Below, piece after piece: positions 11,783 to 26,014 of a DNA stretch of 64,000 nucleotides. The DNA is from a virus. Its lineage: Duplodnaviria; Caudoviricetes. The notes under the pieces are model-generated. The model did no database searches, was not told where the DNA came from, and saw nothing but the letters and a program-made list of their open reading frames with translations. The DNA lies in IMG/VR virus record IMGVR_UViG_3300028392_002123; one strand, given 5' to 3'. Made by a program: the position numbers and the translations under genes. Every line of letters starts with the position of its first letter. Position 1 is the stretch's first letter.

Positions 11783-12643
11783 TTATTTTCCCCATCCGTT
11801 AGACCATATGTCTACATGTAATCGTGGACTATATCTATAACCACGTGCCAGTGCTTCGTCTGCAATATGTTTAGTATTACTAAAATATGCTTGGTCGGTT
11901 CCGCCCACAGGCATAACATATACTTGACCTACAAAACCTGCACGTCTATATTCAGATACTGCTTGATTGACTTCTTCAAAGTCTTCTTGCTTGTCTATGA
12001 CAAATTTTAAATACGCATAACCACGTTGTTGATACTCCATGACAACATCTGGTTTAATAGCATCTTGCCAAGATTCGCCACTGGCACTGAGTTTGGGACT
12101 AACACTGAATGTAAGTTGATCTCTGCTTAGATGGTAGTCATTGAGTAAGAAACGTCTAAAGTCGTCGTGTAAATGTTGAGTACCATTTGTTTCAAATGTA
12201 AGATTACGTAGATCCATCATTCTGGGATGACTTAATAAGCTGGGATAAAGTTGTTGCCAACCTAGCAATGGTTCGCCGCCTGTGACAACAAGATGTACAT
12301 CATTGCCGTTAGTTTGTACCCACTTGTGATTAGGTGTTAGCTTTAACATTTCTTCCACTGCTTCATCGATACTGTAGTATGGACTTAGATGTTTAAAAGA
12401 TGGATGCCAACTAGCATAACTATCACAACCAGTTTGTGATAGTGGCAGATCCATAAAAGTTTTATATAAATGAACACGAGCTCCGATATCATCGGGTTCT
12501 GTGGTCTTTTCACCTGCAGGTAATCCAAAGCCCGCACATTTAAAGTTACAGCCGAATGTACGAAAGAACACACTGGGTACACCAATAAAGCGACCTTCTC
12601 CTTGTGCGCTGTAAAAAATTTCACTTACTTTAATTTTATCCAT
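11783..12643 (-). CDS. queE: 7-carboxy-7-deazaguanine synthase (radical SAM)
   Basis: KVSEIFYSAQGEG, FFRTFGCNFKC...CD, VVTGGEPL, TFETNG, SVSPKL, RYSPRLHV. Confidence 0.92.
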   Translation of the reverse strand: MDKIKVSEIFYSAQGEGRFIGVPSVFFRTFGCNFKCAGFGLPAGEKTTEPDDIGARVHLYKTFMDLPLSQTGCDSYASWHPSFKHLSPYYSIDEAVEEMLKLTPNHKWVQTNGNDVHLVVTGGEPLLGWQQLYPSLLSHPRMMDLRNLTFETNGTQHLHDDFRRFLLNDYHLSRDQLTFSVSPKLSASGESWQDAIKPDVVMEYQQRGYAYLKFVIDKQEDFEEVNQAVSEYRRAGFVGQVYVMPVGGTDQAYFSNTKHIADEALARGYRYSPRLHVDIWSNGWGK

Positions 12644-13150: not shown

Positions 13151-13494
13151 TTCTTTAGTTCTTCCATGAGCCAATCCTGTGCCGCATCTCTGACAAAGGG
13201 ATATTTTTTTGCTACTTCATCATCTTTGGACATTTCCATTATTAGTTTTTTCATTACTTTAACAGTCATCATCCAATCTTCTACTGATATTGTATTGCCG
13301 CTAGCACTTTTAATAGTACCATCAACGTTGAAAATAAGAACTGGGTCGGGATTACCGATTTGTATAGCATTTGTGGGACTGGTTGACCATACCGGCTTAG
13401 ATCCATTTGAACTCATGTATAAACCAGATGAACCCACAGCACCTGCAGAATTTACAGGAATAGCACCGTATCCTGGATGTATGTTTGTAGACAT
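13147..13494 (-). CDS. Hypothetical protein
   Basis: 115 aa coupled ORF. Confidence 0.6.
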   Translation of the reverse strand: MSTNIHPGYGAIPVNSAGAVGSSGLYMSSNGSKPVWSTSPTNAIQIGNPDPVLIFNVDGTIKSASGNTISVEDWMMTVKVMKKLIMEMSKDDEVAKKYPFVRDAAQDWLMEELKK

Positions 13495-14258
13495 TATCTA
13501 GGAGCAAATTCTTGTTGCATTTTGATATTGTCAAAGAATTCTTTCTTAGCACCGGGATCAGTTTTAAAGGATCCTTGTAATACTGTGGTCTGTGTTAGAC
13601 TAGAGTGTGCCATAATGCCACGATTCTCACAGCACCCGTGTGTGGCTTGAATGTATACACCTAAGTTTTCTGCTCCAGTGGCTTTTTGGATTTCCCTAGC
13701 AATGTCATTACAAAGTTCCTCTTGGAGTGTACCTCGTCTAGCACACCACTGAGCAATGCGAGTATACTTAGACAAACCAATGAGCTTCTCGGCAGCAATG
13801 ATTCCAATGTATGCAACTCCGCTAACTGGTTGATGATGATGGCTACACATACTGCGAAGCTCACTACGGACCACAAGCATACCTTCATAACGATCCGCGC
13901 TGTCATTTGGAAACGCTGTTGCGTCTGGTGCTGGTTCATATCTTCCTGCCATTATTTCATTGAAGTACATCTTGGCAAGTCGTCTTGCTGTGCCTTTACT
14001 ATTGGGATCGTTCTCCCTATCAATAAGCAAACGATCTAGCACTAATTCAAATGCTTCTGTTGCTTCGTCGATAAGACGTTCCTTTTGTTCCTCGTCAACG
14101 TATTCGCTGATATTGTCTCCTGCCCAGAAACGTTTACCTTCACGTTTCATTTTGAAACGTAGATGATCTCCAAGGTATGCTTCTTCGTAGCCTTTGTCAT
14201 CGTCGCCCTGCATGTCTGCACCTGCAAGTATATTTTTAAGTGTTAGTGGTTCAGTCAT
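13494..14258 (-). CDS. folE: GTP cyclohydrolase I
   Basis: TARRLAKMY, SMCSHHHQP, GLSKYTRI, LQEEL, HGCCENRG. Confidence 0.96.
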   Translation of the reverse strand: MTEPLTLKNILAGADMQGDDDKGYEEAYLGDHLRFKMKREGKRFWAGDNISEYVDEEQKERLIDEATEAFELVLDRLLIDRENDPNSKGTARRLAKMYFNEIMAGRYEPAPDATAFPNDSADRYEGMLVVRSELRSMCSHHHQPVSGVAYIGIIAAEKLIGLSKYTRIAQWCARRGTLQEELCNDIAREIQKATGAENLGVYIQATHGCCENRGIMAHSSLTQTTVLQGSFKTDPGAKKEFFDNIKMQQEFAPR

Positions 14259-14275: not shown

Positions 14276-14304
14276 ATTGTATAGTGTTATTTAGGTTCTG
14301 TCAA
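14276..14304 (-). promoter_or_regulatory. Sigma70-type promoter TTGACA-N17-TACAAT
   Basis: Upstream of folE ATG. Confidence 0.75.
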
Positions 14305-15096
14305 GCGTAAAATAAGGTTGGTTTTAACTGCTGTGTCCAATACTGATAGATCTTTTTCCATCGTTTCTGCATACTTTAATAATGCACTAGTATCTTTTGG
14401 AAAACACATACCGCCAAAACCAAAACTACCATCAGGTCCTGGAACTCGCATATGACTATCTCCAATACGTGCATCTTGTTTAATTAAATTTGAAACAACA
14501 TCATAGTTCAATCCAGCTTTATTAGCTAATTGATACAGCTCATTCATAAAAATTACTTTGGTAGCTAGGAAACTATTAATAGCATATTTGGCCAATGCGG
14601 CATCACCGATGCTACAAAATTTAACGGTTTCTAAATTTTTCTGTGACATTCTTATAATACGCTCGGCTTCATGGCGATATGCAGAAACTGCGCCGCCAAT
14701 GATGGCAAACTTACCATTGATATAATCTTCAAAGGCATTGGCCGCTGTTAAGAATTCAGGAGCATGAACTAAGTTAATATATTGTTCTTGCAGTCTTTGA
14801 TAAACATTGGGCGGAGCAGTGACTTTACTGATAATAACTCCGTTAAAGTTGACCTGTGTTAATTTAGCTAATACATTTTCTAAAATACTAGTATCTGCTG
14901 TTCCATCTGGTCCTTGCGGACTAGGCACACATACAAATACTGCATCATAATTTTGAATATCATTATATGATGCCATCCATCCTTTTGCTGTGTCGATTGC
15001 TACTAAATCAATATTCTGACCAATGTTTAGTTTGATTGATTCGTATATAGTGCCACCAACAAACCCCATACCTATAACTGCTATTTTTGTTGTCAT
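14287..15096 (-). CDS. UDP-glucose/GDP-mannose dehydrogenase family protein
   Basis: IAVIGMGFVG, FVCVPSP, SKVTAPP, PEFL, KYAINSFLATKV, GFGGMCFPKD; lacks the C-terminal UDP-binding domain. Confidence 0.88.
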   Translation of the reverse strand: MTTKIAVIGMGFVGGTIYESIKLNIGQNIDLVAIDTAKGWMASYNDIQNYDAVFVCVPSPQGPDGTADTSILENVLAKLTQVNFNGVIISKVTAPPNVYQRLQEQYINLVHAPEFLTAANAFEDYINGKFAIIGGAVSAYRHEAERIIRMSQKNLETVKFCSIGDAALAKYAINSFLATKVIFMNELYQLANKAGLNYDVVSNLIKQDARIGDSHMRVPGPDGSFGFGGMCFPKDTSALLKYAETMEKDLSVLDTAVKTNLILRLTEPK

Positions 15097-15563
15097 TTTA
15101 ATTCTTTAATCATTTCTGCTTGTGCTACACGTTTGCGTAAGTTGCTACTGGAAAACGAATGATCTCTGCCATTGAATACTAATTCAATTCCGCGCATTCC
15201 ACACTCTTCCATGCCTGAAAAGTTTTTCTGTTGGTATTCTACACCCAGTACACGAACGTCAACCGGAAGTATCAATAATAAGTCAATGAGATCTTGTTCT
15301 GTTTGATATACAACAACTTCATCCACATAACGGCAAGCGGCCAACTGTATTTGTCTCTCTACAATACTTTGAACAGGAGGATTTTTACTATCGGGTCTAT
15401 CAATAGTTGGATCTGTTTGCAGGCCTGCAATTAAATAATCACAGTGATTCTTTGCTTCTGCTAACATGGCAATATGACCTGCATGTAGCAAATCAAATGT
15501 ACTAAAGGTAATACCTATTTTTTTACCTGCTTCTTTTAACTGTCTTACTTTATTAAATATCAT
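15093..15563 (-). CDS. TagD-like CTP-dependent cytidylyltransferase
   Basis: TFSTFDLLHAGH, LIAGLQTD, ERQIQLAACRYVDEV, SSS. Confidence 0.88.
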   Translation of the reverse strand: MIFNKVRQLKEAGKKIGITFSTFDLLHAGHIAMLAEAKNHCDYLIAGLQTDPTIDRPDSKNPPVQSIVERQIQLAACRYVDEVVVYQTEQDLIDLLLILPVDVRVLGVEYQQKNFSGMEECGMRGIELVFNGRDHSFSSSNLRKRVAQAEMIKELK

Positions 15564-15946
15564 GGTGAATTAGATTGTAAATTTTGATATTCTTCGGTGC
15601 TATTATCCTGCCCGGGCCCTGCTTTTACAAGTTCTTTAATAAATGTGTAATGCTTATGCGCCTCGTCTAATGCAGGATATTTACTGCAAAGAATCTTTAG
15701 TTCTTCTTCTTCCTGCATTTTTTTCATTACCCAATGTCCGATAACATTTATATCATAAGCACCGGCATTATGCTGTATTTGTATAGTATTATCTATTCGC
15801 TGCCACCCACCGTTGCCGCCTGTACTAACTTCAAAACACTTATTAGCACCATTCCATTGAACAGCGCCGGTGATACTAGGTAAATTATAGCTAGTGTCCG
15901 TTTGATACCAATTAGGAGAGGTTCCGTAGCTTTGTATTTTAATCAT
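15560..15946 (-). CDS. Hypothetical protein
   Basis: 128 aa coupled ORF. Confidence 0.6.
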   Translation of the reverse strand: MIKIQSYGTSPNWYQTDTSYNLPSITGAVQWNGANKCFEVSTGGNGGWQRIDNTIQIQHNAGAYDINVIGHWVMKKMQEEEELKILCSKYPALDEAHKHYTFIKELVKAGPGQDNSTEEYQNLQSNSP

Positions 15947-17040
15947 TTAATTCTTTCTAACAAGACTTTGGCAGAAAAGAAGTTTTCGGTTAAGTCTTGT
16001 GTTTGTTTTTTGATATATGATAAGCGAGTGTTATAATAATCCATGTGAGTCATAATAGCGCGACATAGATCTAGACGATATACTGTATACGCATCATAAC
16101 TTTCAGTCCACTTACTGGGATATTTAAACATGTCTGTGTACATTTCACTATAGCTTAATCTATCTGGGACAAATGGTATAGCATCAACTACCGCACCTTC
16201 ATAGCAACTAATGCCTAAAGTTTCTTGTAGATTCGCACTGAACACTAACTTGGCTTGACCTAATAAAGAATGATATTCGTCTTTGGTTAATTGCTTGTCT
16301 TGGCAAACAACAAATTCATACTGCGGTAAGTGTGTAGCTAAGTCTCGAAAAATCTCAACTTGCTTCTCTGGTGCGATGCGATGCGGGAAAAGAATTAGGT
16401 CACGTTTAACTATGCCTTTATAAGGAGCCAACGTGTCCTGCATATACTCCATAGGCCAACCTGTGCGTACAAATCTAGGATCTTCACCTTTTAAGATTTC
16501 ATCTAGATGTTCGCTGAACCAAGGATTTTCTGTAGGATAATCATTTAACAGATTAGTATAAAACATTGTAACGTGAAAGTCAGTGGCAAAGTAATTATGA
16601 TCAAACGCCGAAAAGAAACTTTTCTCAGCGTGTCTGACCCAAGGCTTATCTCCGACTAAGCGTCCAAGAAAGTCTTGAGGATCATAACTGCCAGCATGCC
16701 ATAAGCCATGTGTAGTTACTGGAATGCCCAGCAACTCGCTCATATACTTTAAGTTTATGATACCTGGATGCCAAGCATCGGTAAAGATAAAATGATCGCC
16801 AGCCTTGACGGATCCTGCACAAAAAAGTCTTCCAAGCTGTTCAACTTGGCTTGCCTTATAGATATTAGTACCCCCAAAATTAAGAAATGCACCAGGAGTA
16901 GTGGCTGTAGGAATATCGCTAGGGCCCGAGATAATTTGAACATTATGTCCTTCTTTCTTTAGTAATTCAGGTACGTGAGTTTTCCACTGCCCTGTATAAC
17001 GTGTGTCAACTGCTTCTAAATCAACTAGAAATATTGTCAT
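15943..17040 (-). CDS. GT-B glycosyltransferase (GT4-like)
   Basis: Start MTIFLVDLE at 17040; ILFPHRIAPEKQ; ETLGISCYEG (Ex7E-like); FVPDRLSYSEM. Confidence 0.82.
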   Translation of the reverse strand: MTIFLVDLEAVDTRYTGQWKTHVPELLKKEGHNVQIISGPSDIPTATTPGAFLNFGGTNIYKASQVEQLGRLFCAGSVKAGDHFIFTDAWHPGIINLKYMSELLGIPVTTHGLWHAGSYDPQDFLGRLVGDKPWVRHAEKSFFSAFDHNYFATDFHVTMFYTNLLNDYPTENPWFSEHLDEILKGEDPRFVRTGWPMEYMQDTLAPYKGIVKRDLILFPHRIAPEKQVEIFRDLATHLPQYEFVVCQDKQLTKDEYHSLLGQAKLVFSANLQETLGISCYEGAVVDAIPFVPDRLSYSEMYTDMFKYPSKWTESYDAYTVYRLDLCRAIMTHMDYYNTRLSYIKKQTQDLTENFFSAKVLLERIK

Positions 17041-17557
17041 CGATTTCAGTGTCCTGTGTGTATTGATCCCAATAGGTAAAAGTTTTTGCGGACATAAGAT
17101 CATGTAACTGATGAGTCCATACGCCTGCATTAGTTGCACCCCATGTACGATCATCCAACTTAATTGTAGCATTGTAATTAAATTGATTAATGTAAGGTAA
17201 TTTTACACTGATCATAGGAACAAACCTATTGCGTTCGTTTAAGCCACTTTCAAGTAGTCCTTCTGCCTGTGCAACATCTAGATCTAATGTACACCAATAA
17301 TCTGCATCGAGACATCCGTAGATCATCAATTCCCATTTGGCCCAATCACCGCCATTATTGACAGTGATGTCGGGGAAACTTTGACTAGTACCAAAATATA
17401 TATGTTGAACTTTGTGTTCTTCGGCTAATTTAAGAATCTCTTGTACTGGCTGAACTCCTACCACGAACAATGTTAGCATACCATAGCAACGAGTATGTTC
17501 GACTTCATAGCCTGTAAAATATTTAACACCCTGTCGTTCTTCTGTGTTTAATCCCAT
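17021..17557 (-). CDS. Conserved-looking hypothetical phage protein
   Basis: 178 aa, YFTGYEVEHT; embedded in the modification locus. Confidence 0.7.
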   Translation of the reverse strand: MGLNTEERQGVKYFTGYEVEHTRCYGMLTLFVVGVQPVQEILKLAEEHKVQHIYFGTSQSFPDITVNNGGDWAKWELMIYGCLDADYWCTLDLDVAQAEGLLESGLNERNRFVPMISVKLPYINQFNYNATIKLDDRTWGATNAGVWTHQLHDLMSAKTFTYWDQYTQDTEIDDNISS

Positions 17558-18444
17558 TTGATATATCCTCTGCTGTAATTATTTGGACGATTTGCACCAT
17601 CTGCAAATGCCTGTTGCCATTCTGAATCTCTATTATAGCCTTTTGTCCAAAAACTGTCAACATCGATATCACCGTTTGTAATCCATTGCTCGGCATCTTT
17701 CATACATTGATAAAAGCGATCTGTGCGTGGACTTGGAAAGATCATTGTACAAGCTTTCCAAAGTAAATTACTAAAGTCTGTTGTAACTGTTTTCTGTGCG
17801 CCAAATACTACTAATGCTTCGTTGTTTAAAATGTCTGCATCAAAAATATCTGCACGACTACTTAGATCAATGACAACATCAAAGCGACCATTATAAGCCG
17901 GTGTCGATCTATCTTGCCATAAATCTTTGTTACTGTTACCGACTACTGTGACTTCAAAATCTAGATGATTAAGTTTAATAGTATTATAAGCAACCCATGC
18001 TAGAAAGCCACTGCCGATAATTAGTAGTCGACGACCAGGTCCACTGCGTTCTGCAATTTCACGAATAGGTTGCATTACTACATTCACACCACAGGCCACA
18101 GGTTCTAGGATATAACGAGGATGTGCTTCTGGTACTTTTACATATTCTTTGTTTTTAGCCACATACTGATCTGCGTATGCAGGTTCACCGCGTGTGGCCA
18201 CATAGTCTCCTGCAACCACATCAATGACTTTAGGACCGGTTCTAATTACTCGGCCTAGACCTTCGTGTCCTTGCATGTGCAATGGTAATGGTCCAAAATT
18301 GCCCATCATCATATCAATGTCACTGCGACATACACCTGTCATCACAGATTGTACAAATATTTCATCTTCTTTTAAAAATGCCGGAACATCATATACGCTC
18401 TCGACAAACAATCCATTTCCTGTTGTGGCTAATACTCTGTTCAT
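17548..18444 (-). CDS. Medium-chain (Zn-type) alcohol/sugar dehydrogenase
   Basis: GVCRSD, GHEGLG, GDYV, LEPVAC, LLIIGSG; ATGA-coupled start at 18444. Confidence 0.85.
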   Translation of the reverse strand: MNRVLATTGNGLFVESVYDVPAFLKEDEIFVQSVMTGVCRSDIDMMMGNFGPLPLHMQGHEGLGRVIRTGPKVIDVVAGDYVATRGEPAYADQYVAKNKEYVKVPEAHPRYILEPVACGVNVVMQPIREIAERSGPGRRLLIIGSGFLAWVAYNTIKLNHLDFEVTVVGNSNKDLWQDRSTPAYNGRFDVVIDLSSRADIFDADILNNEALVVFGAQKTVTTDFSNLLWKACTMIFPSPRTDRFYQCMKDAEQWITNGDIDVDSFWTKGYNRDSEWQQAFADGANRPNNYSRGYIKWD

Positions 18445-19292
18445 AGGTCTTCTATTAATTGATGGATCCATTGATCTTGTAAAAATTGTTCTTTCCAGAA
18501 CTTATTGTTATTTAGGTTTTCTATCGCATTTTTAATCATGCTAATATAAGGACCAGCTGGGCAACCGCCAAATGCTGTCATATAATCCCCTAGTTCAAAC
18601 TTGATAGTTTTTCCGCTGTTTAGATGAAATTCAATATAAAATTCATCTTGTGTATTATTTTTCCAACTCGCTTGAAACAACCATGTAGTATTGTTAGTAA
18701 TACCAATCTCACAAAAATCATCGATGCCAGTGTTGTTACTATCTTTAACTCTTTTGTATAAAGTTATACCTTTTTTGTATTCTGTTAATGCTGTATACAT
18801 ACTGAGTAAGTGTGGCATTAAGTCCCTGCTGACTCCACCAAAGGCCTTGGACTTGTCAGTGAACCAAGGACTAGACGGAACACCATCTTTCCTGCTCCAA
18901 CAAACAACCACCTTCTTGCTGAGTTTTACCAAGTCTCGATAACCAGACATTTCTGTGCGGAACTGATTGTTCCTAACCATCATTATTTTAGTGTTAGGAT
19001 AGTCGTCGATTAACTTTGTCCATGTAGTAGAATTTTCTACCCCAGGCTTTTCAATAATTAACAAACTAGTATGTTCGGCAACTTCTCTTGCAACAGATTC
19101 ATGCGTCCAGTTCGGTGTACCGATATAGACAATTTTAAAATTTTTATGATTGTCTATGGCTTCTTGTACTTGTCGATAGTCGGCCGCTTTATCTGTTGCA
19201 GGATCTACAGTAACTACTTGGTAATTGAGTTGTTTAAGCCATAAGGCATATTGTTGCCCCATGCCTAAACCTATCACTAAGGCTTTATCCAT
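18441..19292 (-). CDS. Gfo/Idh/MocA family oxidoreductase
   Basis: LVIGLGMG, YIGTPNWTH, IIEKP, FGGVSRDLMPH. Confidence 0.85.
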   Translation of the reverse strand: MDKALVIGLGMGQQYALWLKQLNYQVVTVDPATDKAADYRQVQEAIDNHKNFKIVYIGTPNWTHESVAREVAEHTSLLIIEKPGVENSTTWTKLIDDYPNTKIMMVRNNQFRTEMSGYRDLVKLSKKVVVCWSRKDGVPSSPWFTDKSKAFGGVSRDLMPHLLSMYTALTEYKKGITLYKRVKDSNNTGIDDFCEIGITNNTTWLFQASWKNNTQDEFYIEFHLNSGKTIKFELGDYMTAFGGCPAGPYISMIKNAIENLNNNKFWKEQFLQDQWIHQLIEDL

Positions 19293-22177: not shown

Positions 22178-22915
22178 TTACCTTGTGTGACCTGGTAAAA
22201 TATAATTGTATGTGCCAACACCACTGTTGATAGTAATCAAACAAGCAATTTGACAAAATTTTACAGTACATTCACCGCTCATGCCAAGCTTTAAGATTGC
22301 CAAAAATTTATCAATGGGCCAAGCATAACCTTCTTTGATAGAACCAGTTACTCCGCTGGCAAATGTCATACGACCAAAGTGACTGCCACCAACGTCGCTG
22401 CCAAAGATAAAAATAAGGTCATTATTTTCTACAGTAACAGTAAATGTTGGCTCTAGGCCACTGTAAATTCCTGCCTTAGCAGACATTTCGCTGACTTTAC
22501 TTTTCTTTGGTTCAAATTCAATTTCCCATTTAGGAACTTTGAAAGAACTTTGTTCAAGTTGTGTGTCAATGATTTCTTTGGTCATTAAACGATACTTGTC
22601 GCTGTTACCATCTGCGTCTTTAAATTGAATGTAGTCGGGTACTGCTACATTATTTTTTGTTGAAGATAAAATTTCAACTTCTGCGCCTTCTTTGTTATAA
22701 AGGCCACTAAGACCATTAAGGAAACTTAAATTTCCCAGGCCTACTTCTCCAATTAAACCCGGATTAGGGTTTGCAAGTTGTGCATCAAGAACTACGTCTC
22801 GGTCTGTGTCACAGGTCCAAATTTCTGTTGCCTCGTCAGTGCCAGTAATTTTTGCCAAGTCAAAGAAGCCTAAACTAGCCGTATGACGCACAATGTCTAA
22901 GATTGCGTCTTTCAT
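22178..22915 (-). CDS. Probable DNA polymerase sliding clamp (gp45-like)
   Basis: 245 aa, alternating helix/strand pattern, near the polymerase; recognised by family resemblance only. Confidence 0.55.
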   Translation of the reverse strand: MKDAILDIVRHTASLGFFDLAKITGTDEATEIWTCDTDRDVVLDAQLANPNPGLIGEVGLGNLSFLNGLSGLYNKEGAEVEILSSTKNNVAVPDYIQFKDADGNSDKYRLMTKEIIDTQLEQSSFKVPKWEIEFEPKKSKVSEMSAKAGIYSGLEPTFTVTVENNDLIFIFGSDVGGSHFGRMTFASGVTGSIKEGYAWPIDKFLAILKLGMSGECTVKFCQIACLITINSGVGTYNYILPGHTR

Positions 22916-22936: not shown

Positions 22937-22965
22937 ATTGTATAGTATTTAGATTTTTAAGTCAA
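22937..22965 (-). promoter_or_regulatory. Sigma70-type promoter TTGACT-N17-TACAAT (TAAATA in spacer)
   Basis: Upstream of the clamp gene. Confidence 0.65.
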
Positions 22966-23344
22966 CTGTTTGCCCATTTGCGATCACCAAAATCATTAGT
23001 AATATATAGGTCAGTTGATGTATAAACTGGTCGGCACCAAACCAAATCCAGTAATGTTTGTCCTTGTAACTACGAGGGCCAAACTTCATTTTAATCCAAT
23101 CGATGTGATAGTGGACAAAAAAATCCAACGCGGCCAAGATAATTGCCCACAGTGGAATCAAAAATAATACACAGACTATAAACGTACCCATCATATGATG
23201 AAAGGAATGTCTTAATCCTAGGCCATGAAAATATATGCCTTTATTTTCGGCCATCTCACTGGTCTGTAAAACAAAGTCGCAGATGAAATGTTTGAATGTC
23301 AGCAATATTGCCCATTGTAACATATAGTAGTCGTGTGTTGACAT
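22949..23344 (-). CDS. DUF3307-like membrane protein
   Basis: KHFICDFVLQ, HSFHH, HYHIDWIK, GADQFIH and hydrophobic helices. Confidence 0.8.
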   Translation of the reverse strand: MSTHDYYMLQWAILLTFKHFICDFVLQTSEMAENKGIYFHGLGLRHSFHHMMGTFIVCVLFLIPLWAIILAALDFFVHYHIDWIKMKFGPRSYKDKHYWIWFGADQFIHQLTYILLMILVIANGQTVDLKI

Positions 23345-23356
23345 GAATTTATTTAG

Positions 23357-26014
23357 TTAGCTAAACAACAAATCAAAGGCATTTTTTTGATCACTGGCTC
23401 TAATATCCCACTCAAGTACACCAATCAAGTTATCAATTTTATTATTGATAATTGTTTCTTCCATGGCTTGATGATCAAAGCCCATTTCGTCGGTGAACCA
23501 ACTGGGCAGTCTCATTTCATCAATAGGATATGCAATACTGGTAATGCCCATTGGATTATTCTTTAGTTTACAGACAATAACTTTCATGCCGTCTGTTATT
23601 TCCATACTTCGGTTATCACTATATGCCTTGCGTAAACGATTCCAGTTAATGGCCGCCATGGCATGACCAACACCACACTTGCCAGTCTTATTAAAGACTT
23701 CTGTATGTTTGGTCAAGTTATTAACACGCTTGGGTGTGCCTTTTTCCCAACCTGGTCTATCCTTAAATGCTGTGCGGAATTCATTGATAGCATCAATCAC
23801 ATCCTGCTTGTCCTGGCCCAGCAGGACCATCATAAGAATTTTTTCCAAAAACTTTTGCATGAACTCAGGAGTGTCTGCTCGTTTCATATCAAGACCCATG
23901 GCCTTGATCTCTCCAGGTTCCCCGTCTTTGTCTTTGCGTTTGCCTTCTTTATCATAGATAAGAACTGCATAGCGTTTCTTGGTAATGTATAGACCTTTTG
24001 ACGCAACGACTTCACGACCTGCTTTAATAATTTCCCCTAGGTTAGTGGGAACATTAAACGCAGTATTCATAAACTGTGGGAATGTAGCATTAACTTCTTC
24101 GGCCACAGCATCATATAGTTCAATGACTTTTTCTCTAGACCAATCAACTTCATTACGAGTAATCTGTTCTTGATAAATCGGATAAGCACTAAAGTAACAA
24201 CTGTCAGTGTCACCGTAGATAATTGATTTACCTGTATGATCATATTCTCCGGTGAACATGGCATTAACCTGACTGGCCATATGTTTGGCAACCTGCCTGC
24301 CACTGAGTGTGGTACTCTGTCCTAGTCTGTGATCAAAGAATCTACTACCTGCATTTAACAACGCACCATATGCAGAGTTCAAATTAATTTTCTTAACCAG
24401 TTGTCGCTTGTCCCAATATTCTTCTGCTACTTTGTCGCCTGAATTAATTGCTTCTCTTAATTTCTTTTGTAGTTCTTTACGTTCACTGTACCAACGAGTG
24501 AGCAGGCCTGGAATAATACCCTGCTTTTCGTAGGTAAAGATTGTGCCATTGGCACTGAGCATCCAAGGCTTACCTTGTAGATAAATCAAGTCATGGGCTT
24601 CTGCCGCTGACATTTCTGTGGCAGTACCGTTCTCCCAATCAATGACAAGATCATAGGCCTTGTTCTTGGACATAACTTCATTGTACTCATGAATAGCAAA
24701 TTTACCATCCCAATAGTCAGCAAATGCTTTACCTGAATCTAACCACTGTTTAAGTTCTGATTTAGTTTGTTGTTGACGTACTTGTCCAATGATAGTTTCC
24801 GGACTCATATTAAGACTACGAATTAAACTAGGATACAGACTGTTCAAGTCCATGCTTCCAATCCAATCGTGTACGCCTTTTTTCGGATAAGCAACATAAG
24901 CGCCAGCGGCCTGCGTTTCACTGGACTCGCTGTGCTTACGGTCAGGTACAATTAAATTTCTGCTGTGTGCTTCGTTGATAACTGCTTGGTCTGTAACTGC
25001 CACAGCACCCATGGTAGTTGGTAATGTAACAGTATTTGCATGAGCCAATACATTGACAAGATCGATGAACTGTAATTTTTTATCCAGTTTAACCAGCAAC
25101 ATAGTGTCTTGTCTATTATAAGCAATAAACTTTTCAAAGTCATTGTTATATAATTGGTCCAATGTTCCTTCGTATTGGACTTTGTTTTCGCCTAGCTCAT
25201 ATTCTCCAACAAAGTCCAAGCGATAGCTGGGCAATTCATGATATGTGTATTTGCGATATAGTTCAAGATAGTCTAAGTGTATGCGTCCAATGAAATCATA
25301 GGTTTCCGACAATTTACCATACTTTTCATATTCACGTTTTCTGGGTTTTGAATCCCATAGACAAAATCTACGACTATGATCAGCGCCAAGTAACTTAATA
25401 ACACGGTTAACAGTATAAGGTACGTCGTAGCCTTCACTGTTCCAACCACTGATAGTGTCAGCATCATCTAGTAGACTAAGAAAGATGTCCAACATTTCTT
25501 CTTCGGTGTTACACAGTATGGTATTCTCAAACCTATTAACAATAGCTTCCGCTTGTTCCAAGCTCATCAGTGTTGGTTTGATACACAAGGTAACTAGCCG
25601 TTCTAACCAACTTAAATAAACAGTGATAGCAGTGATTGGATTAAAAGGATCACTGGGATCCGCAAAACCCTTTACCTTGTCAAATGCAACTTCGATGTCA
25701 AAGAATGCTTTGTTAAGGTTAGGCGCTTCCGCATTTAAATAGTTTTTCTCTAAACAACGATTCAGCGGTTTGATATCGCTTTCGTATAGTTGTTTATGTC
25801 CGTATACACGTTTTTCTTTTTCAAATGCTTTACGACTTGCTACAGCAACTTTGCTCAGTCTTTTACCGTCAATACTTGTGTATTTGCCTTTGTTATCCTG
25901 ATAATAAAATTCATAGTGCGCTGGAAATTGTTTATACTTTCTCTCACCGTCTATGCGTTCTACTACATTGATAATATCTTTTTCTTTGATGTAAACTGCG
26001 TCAATATAACTCAT
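23357..26014 (-). CDS. polB: Family B DNA polymerase
   Basis: Exo FFDIE and SGWNSEGYD; DLNSLYPS; KINLNSAYG; YGDTDS; KKRY. Confidence 0.98.
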   Translation of the reverse strand: MSYIDAVYIKEKDIINVVERIDGERKYKQFPAHYEFYYQDNKGKYTSIDGKRLSKVAVASRKAFEKEKRVYGHKQLYESDIKPLNRCLEKNYLNAEAPNLNKAFFDIEVAFDKVKGFADPSDPFNPITAITVYLSWLERLVTLCIKPTLMSLEQAEAIVNRFENTILCNTEEEMLDIFLSLLDDADTISGWNSEGYDVPYTVNRVIKLLGADHSRRFCLWDSKPRKREYEKYGKLSETYDFIGRIHLDYLELYRKYTYHELPSYRLDFVGEYELGENKVQYEGTLDQLYNNDFEKFIAYNRQDTMLLVKLDKKLQFIDLVNVLAHANTVTLPTTMGAVAVTDQAVINEAHSRNLIVPDRKHSESSETQAAGAYVAYPKKGVHDWIGSMDLNSLYPSLIRSLNMSPETIIGQVRQQQTKSELKQWLDSGKAFADYWDGKFAIHEYNEVMSKNKAYDLVIDWENGTATEMSAAEAHDLIYLQGKPWMLSANGTIFTYEKQGIIPGLLTRWYSERKELQKKLREAINSGDKVAEEYWDKRQLVKKINLNSAYGALLNAGSRFFDHRLGQSTTLSGRQVAKHMASQVNAMFTGEYDHTGKSIIYGDTDSCYFSAYPIYQEQITRNEVDWSREKVIELYDAVAEEVNATFPQFMNTAFNVPTNLGEIIKAGREVVASKGLYITKKRYAVLIYDKEGKRKDKDGEPGEIKAMGLDMKRADTPEFMQKFLEKILMMVLLGQDKQDVIDAINEFRTAFKDRPGWEKGTPKRVNNLTKHTEVFNKTGKCGVGHAMAAINWNRLRKAYSDNRSMEITDGMKVIVCKLKNNPMGITSIAYPIDEMRLPSWFTDEMGFDHQAMEETIINNKIDNLIGVLEWDIRASDQKNAFDLLFS

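Follow-up and report, generated by a model that had tools for sequence, protein, structure and literature searches.

A GT4-like glycosyltransferase linked to a divergent DpdA-type transglycosylase in an uncultured phage, and its predicted role in the formation of a sugar-bearing 7-deazaguanine

The 64,000-nucleotide (nt) stretch of DNA studied here (the window) comes from the IMG/VR record IMGVR_UViG_3300028392_002123, an uncultured phage of the Caudoviricetes. It includes a gene cluster in which a glycosyltransferase (GT), the subject of this analysis, is found among genes predicted to direct the synthesis of a 7-deazaguanine and its insertion into DNA. The cluster lies on the minus strand throughout, from position 26014 to 9311, with the gene for a family-B DNA polymerase (polB) first and that for a 5'-3' exonuclease/RNase H last, and from polB to the gene for a QueE-like protein the genes overlap for the most part. 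Overlaps of 4-31 nt occur at every junction from 20829 to 14287, and this segment is therefore read as a single translationally coupled operon. The genes for the DpdL-type, QueE-like and MazG-like proteins are assigned to the same operon. In an earlier reading made from the letters alone (the original prediction), eight genes were named ahead of folE, the first resembling those for tRNA-guanine transglycosylases (TGT) and the other seven following it with overlapping starts and stops. All eight are present on the minus strand at the positions given there, and the overlaps were confirmed as far as 14287. The features are listed in Table 1.

Table 1. Genes of the deazaguanine and glycosyltransferase cluster in the window, and the evidence for each assignment (aa, amino acids; ORF, open reading frame)
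Feature	Coordinates	Strand	Evidence
DpdL-type QueD-like protein, predicted 7-carboxy-7-deazaguanine decarboxylase, 126 aa	21178..21558	-	LASPHRHIF; phrog_17812 E 1e-35
DpdAx, divergent TGT/DpdA-superfamily transglycosylase, 514 aa	19285..20829	-	conserved motifs and broadened profile
Gfo/Idh/MocA-type NAD(P) oxidoreductase (Gfo), 283 aa	18441..19292	-	PF01408 E 5.8e-6
Medium-chain (MDR) zinc alcohol dehydrogenase/reductase, 307 aa	17548..18471	-	ADH_N E 2.3e-9
P3, conserved protein without assigned function, 178 aa	17021..17557	-	conserved in relatives
GT-B fold, GT4-like (retaining-type) glycosyltransferase (GT), 365 aa	15943..17040	-	predicted structure, EX7E
P4, protein without family match, 128 aa	15560..15946	-	ORF
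Cytidylyl/adenylyltransferase-like nucleotidyltransferase, 156 aa	15093..15563	-	PF01467 E 4e-11
Truncated UDP-glucose/GDP-mannose dehydrogenase-family protein, 269 aa	14287..15096	-	PF00984 E 1.4e-21, PF03721 E 1e-12
FolE, GTP cyclohydrolase I, first step to 7-deazaguanines	13494..14258	-	PF01227 E 7e-38; phrog_2197 E 7e-44
MazG-like nucleoside triphosphate pyrophosphohydrolase, 101 aa	12869..13174	-	phrog_4856 E 3.7e-19
QueE-like radical-SAM 7-carboxy-7-deazaguanine synthase	11783..12643	-	phrog_2076 E 1.7e-54

The roles assigned to FolE, QueE, DpdL and DpdAx rest on homology and synteny. FolE also matched NF006824 (E 1e-38, under the curated cut-off), and the QueE-like protein matched the QueE models of NCBIfam (E 2e-13, under the cut-offs). 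The motif of the DpdL-type protein conforms to the LxxxHRHxF signature published for DpdL, which replaces the CxxxHGH motif of QueD (PMC10516641). The same signature was found in the DpdL homologues that adjoin the GT gene in the related loci L002, L003, L004, L085, L087 and L099, and in most relatives a DpdL homologue directly precedes the GT.

The product of the TGT-like gene, designated DpdAx, has no match in Pfam (even at E up to 1), PHROG or NCBIfam. Neither of the Pfam families TGT (PF01702) and DpdA (PF23859) recognised it, and the published DpdA3 of phage ACP17 is likewise without a Pfam match. A profile built from the close family found no TGT in the PDB. However, five motifs occur in a fixed order in 23 members of the family, namely DSGGFQ (D108), LD-P (D161), LQG (G210), HFLGT (265-269) and FDCAS (D298), and residues D108, D161, G210, H265 and D298 remained invariant when the alignment was widened to include bacterial homologues and the DpdA proteins of ACP17, BUDD and BCSR5. 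Within LGDSGGFQ (residues 106-113), no variation was seen at D108, S109, G110, G111 and Q113 among 23 close and 15 distant sequences. When the broadened profile was compared with the PDB, 42 of the 44 matches were to tRNA- or DNA-guanine transglycosylases, each of them weak (best E 0.03, over about 200 residues). In this alignment D108 and D298 fall on the catalytic Asp102 and Asp280 of TGT (Zymomonas mobilis numbering), with DSGGFQ opposite ILTDSGGFQ (99-107), HFLGT opposite YLMGVG and SFDCAS opposite MFDCV. A comparison by hhalign connected DpdAx with ACP17 DpdA3 (E 7e-4), while that with the BUDD DpdA was not significant, and matches in language-model (Atlas) features pointed to clusters of TGT/DpdA. 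Given the ordered motifs, the broadened profile, the hhalign link to ACP17 DpdA3 and the feature matches, DpdAx is accepted, on sequence evidence, as a divergent DpdA-type enzyme of the TGT superfamily, and the label 'TGT-like' was thus upheld although no library model matches the protein. In tRNA TGT a C-terminal zinc site is formed by CxCxxC...H; the CxCxxC site is not conserved in the DpdAx family, where C299 is the sole invariant cysteine.

DpdAx sequences from the window and from L005-L084 fall into two deeply split clades with about 40% identity, the branches adding up to about 2.8 changes per site, whereas the GT, FolE and DpdL are 70-89% identical across the same phages. The transglycosylase would therefore either evolve much faster than its conserved neighbours or be exchanged separately.

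As judged from about 80 homologues, translation of the GT begins at Met45 of a 409-aa ORF. The window GT has no Pfam match of its own, and 29 of 41 relatives matched Glycos_transf_1 (E up to 0.1; best 1.6e-6). The predicted structure, obtained with high confidence (predicted local distance difference test score, pLDDT, 95.1; predicted template modelling score, pTM, 0.91), is a two-domain GT-B fold. It was superimposed on sucrose-phosphate synthase (6kih) with Z 26.1 over 317 residues (root-mean-square deviation 3.2) and on BshA and MshA with Z 24-25 over residues 1-365, and the best Foldseek match had E 5e-10. A profile of the GT family had its best PDB match in a putative glycosyltransferase, 8xsg (E 5.8e-4). 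The EX7E motif, LQETLGISCYEG, is retained in the 41 relatives (29-55% identity), with E273 kept in 90% or more of them and E281 in all. Across the whole family, which comprises 1101 representatives at 50% clustering, the EX7E signature and many residues of the pocket are invariant. The original label of 'GT-B glycosyltransferase' therefore agrees with the confident model, which identifies the protein as a GT4-like, retaining-type enzyme. The T4 enzymes AGT and BGT were not among the 50 best structural matches, which by itself does not exclude kinship.

A scan of viral contigs with the GT gave at least 600 IMG/VR loci, and the family in lake and marine viromes amounts to at least 8000 clusters at 90% identity; a scan of viral contigs with a distant member, P0264, gave no match. 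The best 80 loci were inspected, and 59 of these, referred to as complete, span the interval from DpdAx to FolE. In all 59 this interval holds the GT and P3, and in 53 it also holds DpdL. As the same core recurs in every complete locus, the arrangement is not due to chance. Among cultured phages, tblastn with the GT recovered 22 records, in 17 of which the GT is next to DpdA, DpdL, FolE or QueE genes (the PA5oct group, ACP17, BUDD, X1, BCSR5 and Phosso). In 11 PA5oct-like phages the GT starts about 180 bp past the DpdAx homologue. The gene order in ACP17 is QueD, FolE, P3-like, DpdA3, GT, DpdL and QueE; in BUDD, X1 and BCSR5 the GT gene adjoins that for DpdA, and DpdL, QueE and FolE are close by, and in Phosso it is found between DpdL and FolE/QueE. 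The linkage extends to L085 and L087, where the GT is only 28-34% identical and DpdL lies just upstream of it, accompanied in L085 by a gene with TGT motifs and in L087 by FolE. The 8-kb region of the window as a whole had no megablast match among cultured phages. The five weakest of the 22 records form the PhiXhv-12 group, in which a protein 27% identical to the GT over 66% of its length is encoded beside GlmS and a deacetylase.

An alternative is that the module glycosylates virion proteins, host envelope polymers or another DNA base, its position in the cluster being due to shared early or middle expression. Nucleotidyltransferases that form CDP- or ADP-activated compounds, NDP-sugar dehydrogenases and Gfo/Idh/MocA proteins are indeed typical of envelope glycan pathways, and the genes around the GT of the PhiXhv-12 branch form an amino-sugar cluster, no DpdA-type gene being present in the 12.7 kb that was examined there. 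However, the link between the GT and DpdA or DpdL holds across PA5oct, ACP17, BUDD, BCSR5, uncultured freshwater and marine phages, and bacterial islands, which have little else in common, and co-expression alone hardly explains it. The conserved core also includes no hydroxymethylase-type gene for a pyrimidine acceptor, and the restriction data for PA5oct were interpreted as modified G (PMC12191111). This alternative is regarded as distinctly unlikely, and the assignment of the GT to the deazaguanine module, and not to synthesis of virion or surface glycans, is supported by gene linkage. The original prediction had proposed that co-occurrence of the GT with dpdA be sought across phages; it was seen in a number of phage lineages that are not related, as well as in a bacterial cassette, and occurrence of the GT apart from dpdA, which would have spoken against that prediction, was not seen beyond the distant PhiXhv-12 group.

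The branch that includes Xanthomonas phage PhiXhv-12 (L100:3669-6903), and likewise PhiXhv-15, PhiXhv-16, Ep026 and Ep032, combines a distant member of the GT family with GlmS and a PIG-L/BshB-type deacetylase, and may represent a separate amino-sugar modification system of these 227-kb phages.

Matches in bacterial genomes were mostly phage-like contigs in metagenome-assembled genomes with the same layout. Two are chromosomal contigs, a 671-kb contig of Ochrobactrum sp. MYb379 (L095) and a 188-kb contig of a Rhizobiales isolate (L096). The Ochrobactrum island (L095:6055-9053) consists of a DpdAx-like gene, a gene for a transporter of the Vut_1/YhhQ family and the GT, with deazaguanine biosynthesis genes absent, and the Rhizobiales locus has DpdAx-like and GT genes in matching positions. 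The YhhQ family is that of the queuosine-precursor importer. Since an importer here replaces the biosynthesis genes while DpdA and the GT are kept, both enzymes would act on the same deazapurine, and the bacterial cassette argues strongly for such a shared substrate. The cassette may constitute a DNA-modification or defence system, so far undescribed, in which salvaged deazapurines are used; neither it nor any of the core proteins is represented by a PADLOC model. Within the same 17-kb stretch of L095 are also genes for integrases, a gene for GmrSD type IV restriction and large unassigned genes (853 aa and 411 aa).

P3, the other constant member of the core, was found in every one of the 59 complete relatives, and ACP17 has a homologue that is 30% identical. 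In P3, 34 residues are invariant, E18, E20, D92, D135 and D136 among them. The predicted structure (pLDDT 82) gave no convincing fold match (best Z 6.7), and its sequence had no match in the PDB. A weak but recurrent structural likeness to the partial barrel of QueE was observed (Z 5.4-6.0, TM score 0.57), with the iron-sulfur cysteines absent and no sequence link to QueE by hhalign. In Atlas features P3 matched GT-A-type families through few shared features. Candidate counterparts in Phosso and PA5oct had no hhalign link to P3, and those in L085 and BCSR5 had only weak ones.

The genes that surround this core are variable. The GT is 77-84% identical to the window GT across relatives, whichever cassettes are present, and is more conserved than polB (~60%) and much more so than DpdAx (37-53% in most). 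The Gfo and MDR genes always occur together; they are present in 24 of the 59 complete relatives, with at least three gains or losses on the DpdAx tree. Close homologues of the nucleotidyltransferase (77-81% identity) were found in 4 of 84 related viral loci, and the nucleotidyltransferase is present in 4 of the complete relatives; all 4 loci with a close homologue also have P4, which occurs in 8 of the 84 loci and 6 of the complete relatives and has no family match. The truncated dehydrogenase is more widespread, being encoded within the slot between DpdAx and FolE in 19 of the 59 and somewhere in 52 of the 84 loci as a protein of 255-307 aa (L034:9095-9871, L050:9100-9897 and L025:8861-9673 among them). 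Its gene is often translationally coupled to that for the GT, as in 7 relatives in which its start overlaps the GT stop, and a more distant paralogue adjoins the clamp gene in many other loci. Other relatives have in the slot that follows the GT a phosphoribosyltransferase (30/59), a HIT protein (16/59) or 2-oxoglutarate-Fe(II) (2OG-Fe(II)) oxygenases (5 and 3), none of which is in the window; in these relatives the deazapurine may thus undergo hydroxylation or steps at the level of the nucleotide. Examples of genes in the slot are L005:10150-10641, L005:10989-11372, L031:6685-7341 and L041:11727-12293. The order seen in the window, Gfo-MDR-P3-GT-P4-nucleotidyltransferase-dehydrogenase, recurs in L053, and L060 has the same gene set.

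In the original prediction the sugar-activation and redox genes were taken to build the donor of the GT. This appears unlikely, as these genes are variable cassettes around a GT that stays 77-84% identical. As the GT is nearly constant while the cassettes come and go, it would use a common NDP-sugar of the host, and the more probable role of the redox and nucleotidyltransferase genes is in tailoring of the product, not in provision of the main donor. Three details of the cassettes, each of them weak, fit tailoring of the sugar off the nucleotide. The first is the truncation of the 'NDP-sugar dehydrogenase', a name that holds for its NAD-binding and catalytic-cysteine domains, in which VIGMGFVGG (GxGxxG) and the catalytic-Cys motif GFGGMCFPKD are kept, but not for the nucleotide-binding C-terminal domain. 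In UDP-glucose/GDP-mannose dehydrogenases it is through this domain that the NDP-sugar is held by its nucleotide; the window protein has no such domain and ends about 30 residues past the catalytic cysteine, spanning 70-293 of the 413 positions of TIGR03026 and extending up to about residue 300 of solved enzymes of 390-495 residues. The second is the likeness of the Gfo protein to its best solved relative, DgpA1, a glycoside 3-oxidase of C-glycoside catabolism (weak, E 0.0025). The third is the likeness of the nucleotidyltransferase, which has the HxGH motif as HAGH (residues 27-30) and a PF01467 score of 43.6 bits against a cut-off of 21, to RfaE domain II (E 2.5e-23) and TagD (E 5e-16), both under the equivalog cut-offs, and among solved structures to ethanolamine-phosphate cytidylyltransferase (ECT; E 5e-20) and TagD (E 4e-12). 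These are enzymes by which phospho-alcohols or heptose phosphate are activated; as RfaE-II, TagD and ECT all match, its substrate is not assignable from sequence. The MDR protein has the zinc-ligand motifs GVCRSD and GHEGLG and the Rossmann motif GSGFLA, and its solved relatives are alcohol and polyol dehydrogenases.

Two other proposals concerning these genes were dropped. The zinc dehydrogenase and the nucleotidyltransferase were considered as a CDP-alditol pair (TarJ/TarI-like), but they belong to separate cassettes that occur independently. P4 and a 115-aa protein were considered as paralogues, and the match between them is weak and covers only 29 residues (E 0.007).

The nearest described system is that of Cellulophaga phage phiST, the DpdL and DpdA3 of which are associated with plain 2'-deoxy-7-deazaguanosine (dDG) in its DNA (PMC10516641). 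The window resembles it in having FolE, QueE, DpdL with the LxxxHRHxF signature, no QueC, and a very divergent TGT-type transglycosylase encoded next to the DNA polymerase gene, but adds the GT, P3 and the variable redox and nucleotidyltransferase cassettes. DpdAx is about 100 residues longer than DpdA3 and 16-20% identical to it in the alignment. ACP17 is listed as a DpdL/DpdA carrier in the same work (Cui, Hutinet et al., Nucleic Acids Research 2023, PMC10516641), in which no dDG was obtained in E. coli from the dpdL and dpdA of either phiST or ACP17 by themselves, and a need for other enzymes was suggested as a possibility.

The GT could in principle be such a missing component, having no transferase activity and serving as a structural or accessory partner of DpdAx, with the redox genes as unrelated metabolic cargo. 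DpdB, a helper of bacterial DpdA, offers an analogy, and the GT and P3 are the conserved neighbours for which an explanation is wanted. However, phiST makes dDG and has no tblastn match to the GT, and EX7E and many of the pocket residues are invariant over more than 1000 family representatives. This possibility is regarded as very improbable; co-folding of DpdAx and the GT gave a score of 0.00, which is uninformative either way.

The DNA of the Pseudomonas jumbo phage PA5oct (Wroclawvirus) is resistant to restriction at sites that contain G, and a modified G of undetermined structure was reported, for which a 7-deaza type was proposed; this DNA is also a target of the END nucleases, by which hypermodified DNA is sensed (PMC12191111). 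A glycosyltransferase is not mentioned in that report (PMC12191111). The PA5oct cluster has the same order as the window, namely polB, a clamp-like gene, DpdAx (37% identity), GT (39%), DpdL, QueE and RNase H, but lacks Gfo/MDR, the cytidylyltransferase and the truncated dehydrogenase and has no detectable P3.

Three known systems provide precedents for parts of the chemistry. In T-even phages, glucosylated 5-hydroxymethylcytosine is likewise produced by a phage GT-B enzyme acting on a non-canonical base, serves counter-defence and varies between lineages, all of which is here predicted; unlike in T-even phages, the base would be a purine analogue introduced by base exchange and not a pyrimidine made at the nucleotide level. 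Animal tRNA contains mannosyl-Q and galactosyl-Q, and QTMAN is a GT4-type enzyme. Glycosylated queuosine is thus likewise a 7-deazaguanine inserted by TGT and then glycosylated by a GT-B enzyme, as is predicted here, but the substrate there is tRNA and the sugar is on a cyclopentenediol side chain that is not made in the window; none of 41 members of the GT family matched Pfam QTMAN_N at E up to 0.1. Huimycin and dapiramicin of actinomycetes are N2-glycosides of 7-deazaguanines. In these the sugar is on the exocyclic amine of a 7-deazaguanine without a side-chain hydroxyl, as would be needed for the window product, but they are soluble natural products of bacterial clusters without a DNA transglycosylase.

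Taken together, these data are consistent with a DpdA system of a hypermodifying kind, in which a sugar-bearing 7-deazaguanine would be the final product in DNA; to this reading we assign a probability of about 0.55. FolE and QueE, with QueD provided from elsewhere in the genome or by the host, would yield 7-carboxy-7-deazaguanine, which DpdL is predicted to decarboxylate. DpdAx would then exchange guanine in the phage DNA for the deazaguanine base, and the GT would add a sugar from a common host NDP-sugar, either to the deazaguanine in DNA or to the free base before its insertion by DpdAx. P3 may perform a further core step. Tailoring of the sugar would fall to Gfo/Idh/MocA with the zinc dehydrogenase, and to P4 with the cytidylyltransferase-like protein and the truncated dehydrogenase. 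The sugar-bearing deazaguanines so formed would differ from lineage to lineage and would let the DNA escape restriction enzymes and modification-dependent nucleases. In this scheme deazaguanine as the acceptor, the order of glycosylation and base exchange, the sugar and the roles of the cassettes are all deduced from the gene content, and the one line of evidence pointing to a GT that acts on a base in double-stranded DNA is the linkage of its gene to DpdA.

Besides the PhiXhv-12 group, several observations weigh against this scheme. No QueC or QueD gene was found within the 64-kb window, QueD having been sought by tblastn and motif scans. The expected DpdL product, 7-deazaguanine, is without a side chain and offers no obvious hydroxyl acceptor; therefore the sugar would be on N2, O6 or a ring carbon, or the acceptor would be made by P3 or by the oxygenases of some relatives. 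The phosphoribosyltransferase and HIT genes of relatives hint at nucleotide-level chemistry that the scheme does not explain. The GT is acidic (pI 5.7, also the family median), and its nearest solved relatives use small-molecule acceptors (malate, inositol phosphate, sugars and tetrahydrobiopterin), because of which the GT may not touch DNA at all.

These last points would be accommodated by a soluble glycosylated 7-deazapurine or pterin, acting as a regulator, as an inhibitor of the queuosine or folate pathways of the host, or in storage or detoxification of pathway intermediates, with plain 7-deazaguanine in the DNA. The solved relatives include the tetrahydrobiopterin alpha-glucosyltransferase (5zer, 9v0l), the pterin acceptor of which derives from the GTP cyclohydrolase I (FolE) pathway; huimycin and dapiramicin show that such chemistry exists, and the phosphoribosyltransferase and HIT genes are beside the GT in relatives. 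However, a metabolite pathway needs no DNA transglycosylase, and the GT is tied to DpdA-type genes even in the minimal bacterial cassette. In all phage lineages examined, these genes are part of the replication module and are flanked by polB and RNase H, and the nucleases that attack PA5oct DNA recognise hypermodified DNA. A soluble product is thus regarded as unlikely.

The suggestion that a glycosylated deazaguanine in DNA would be a new base is accordingly retained in part. The GT is tied to the deazaguanine module, and no paper was found that connects DpdA with a glycosyltransferase or describes DNA containing a glycosylated deazaguanine, a result that is provisional as most subscription journals were outside the search; against it, the product of the DpdL route offers no side chain for the sugar. 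To our knowledge, the groups found on natural 7-deazaguanine modifications of DNA are all small (nitrile, amide, aminomethyl, methyl, formyl, carboxyl or hydrogen), and we know of sugars on DNA bases for phage pyrimidines and for base J of kinetoplastids, and not for purines.

In a broader and more tentative form, for which the balance is somewhat unfavourable, guanine would be replaced by a sugar-bearing 7-deazaguanine in PA5oct-like phages, ACP17, BUDD, BCSR5 and Phosso alike, its sugar being attached by a dedicated GT4-type enzyme and diversified by swappable cassettes, and the related three-gene cassette of bacteria would do the same with salvaged bases. The chemistries of the cassettes could then include oxidation/reduction, formation of a uronic acid by the nucleotide-independent dehydrogenase, and addition of a phospho-alcohol. 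Such diversification would parallel that of O-antigen, with modification-dependent nucleases and DNA glycosylases as its driving force.

If correct, the proposed system would provide the first glycosylated purine analogue in any genome and extend the chemistry of DNA. It would explain the 'hypermodified G' of PA5oct, a candidate for therapeutic use, and would predict the restriction, CRISPR and type IV systems that such phages escape or trigger. Given the great abundance of the GT family in lake and marine viromes, the modification would be ecologically common, and its enzymes might be useful for labelling or protection of DNA.

Two further genes of the cluster are of note. Between polB and a gene at 22178-22915 (phrog_12062) is a gene for a DUF3307 membrane protein (phrog_2470; 22949-23344, minus strand), which had no tblastn match in the 84 related loci. 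The phrog_12062 gene has a homologue in Phosso that is annotated as a sliding clamp. The gene for the MazG-like protein lies in the stretch between those for FolE and QueE and overlaps the genes next to it, and its product could lower (d)GTP or cleanse the pool of nucleotides, a task of dedicated NTPases in other base-replacing phages.

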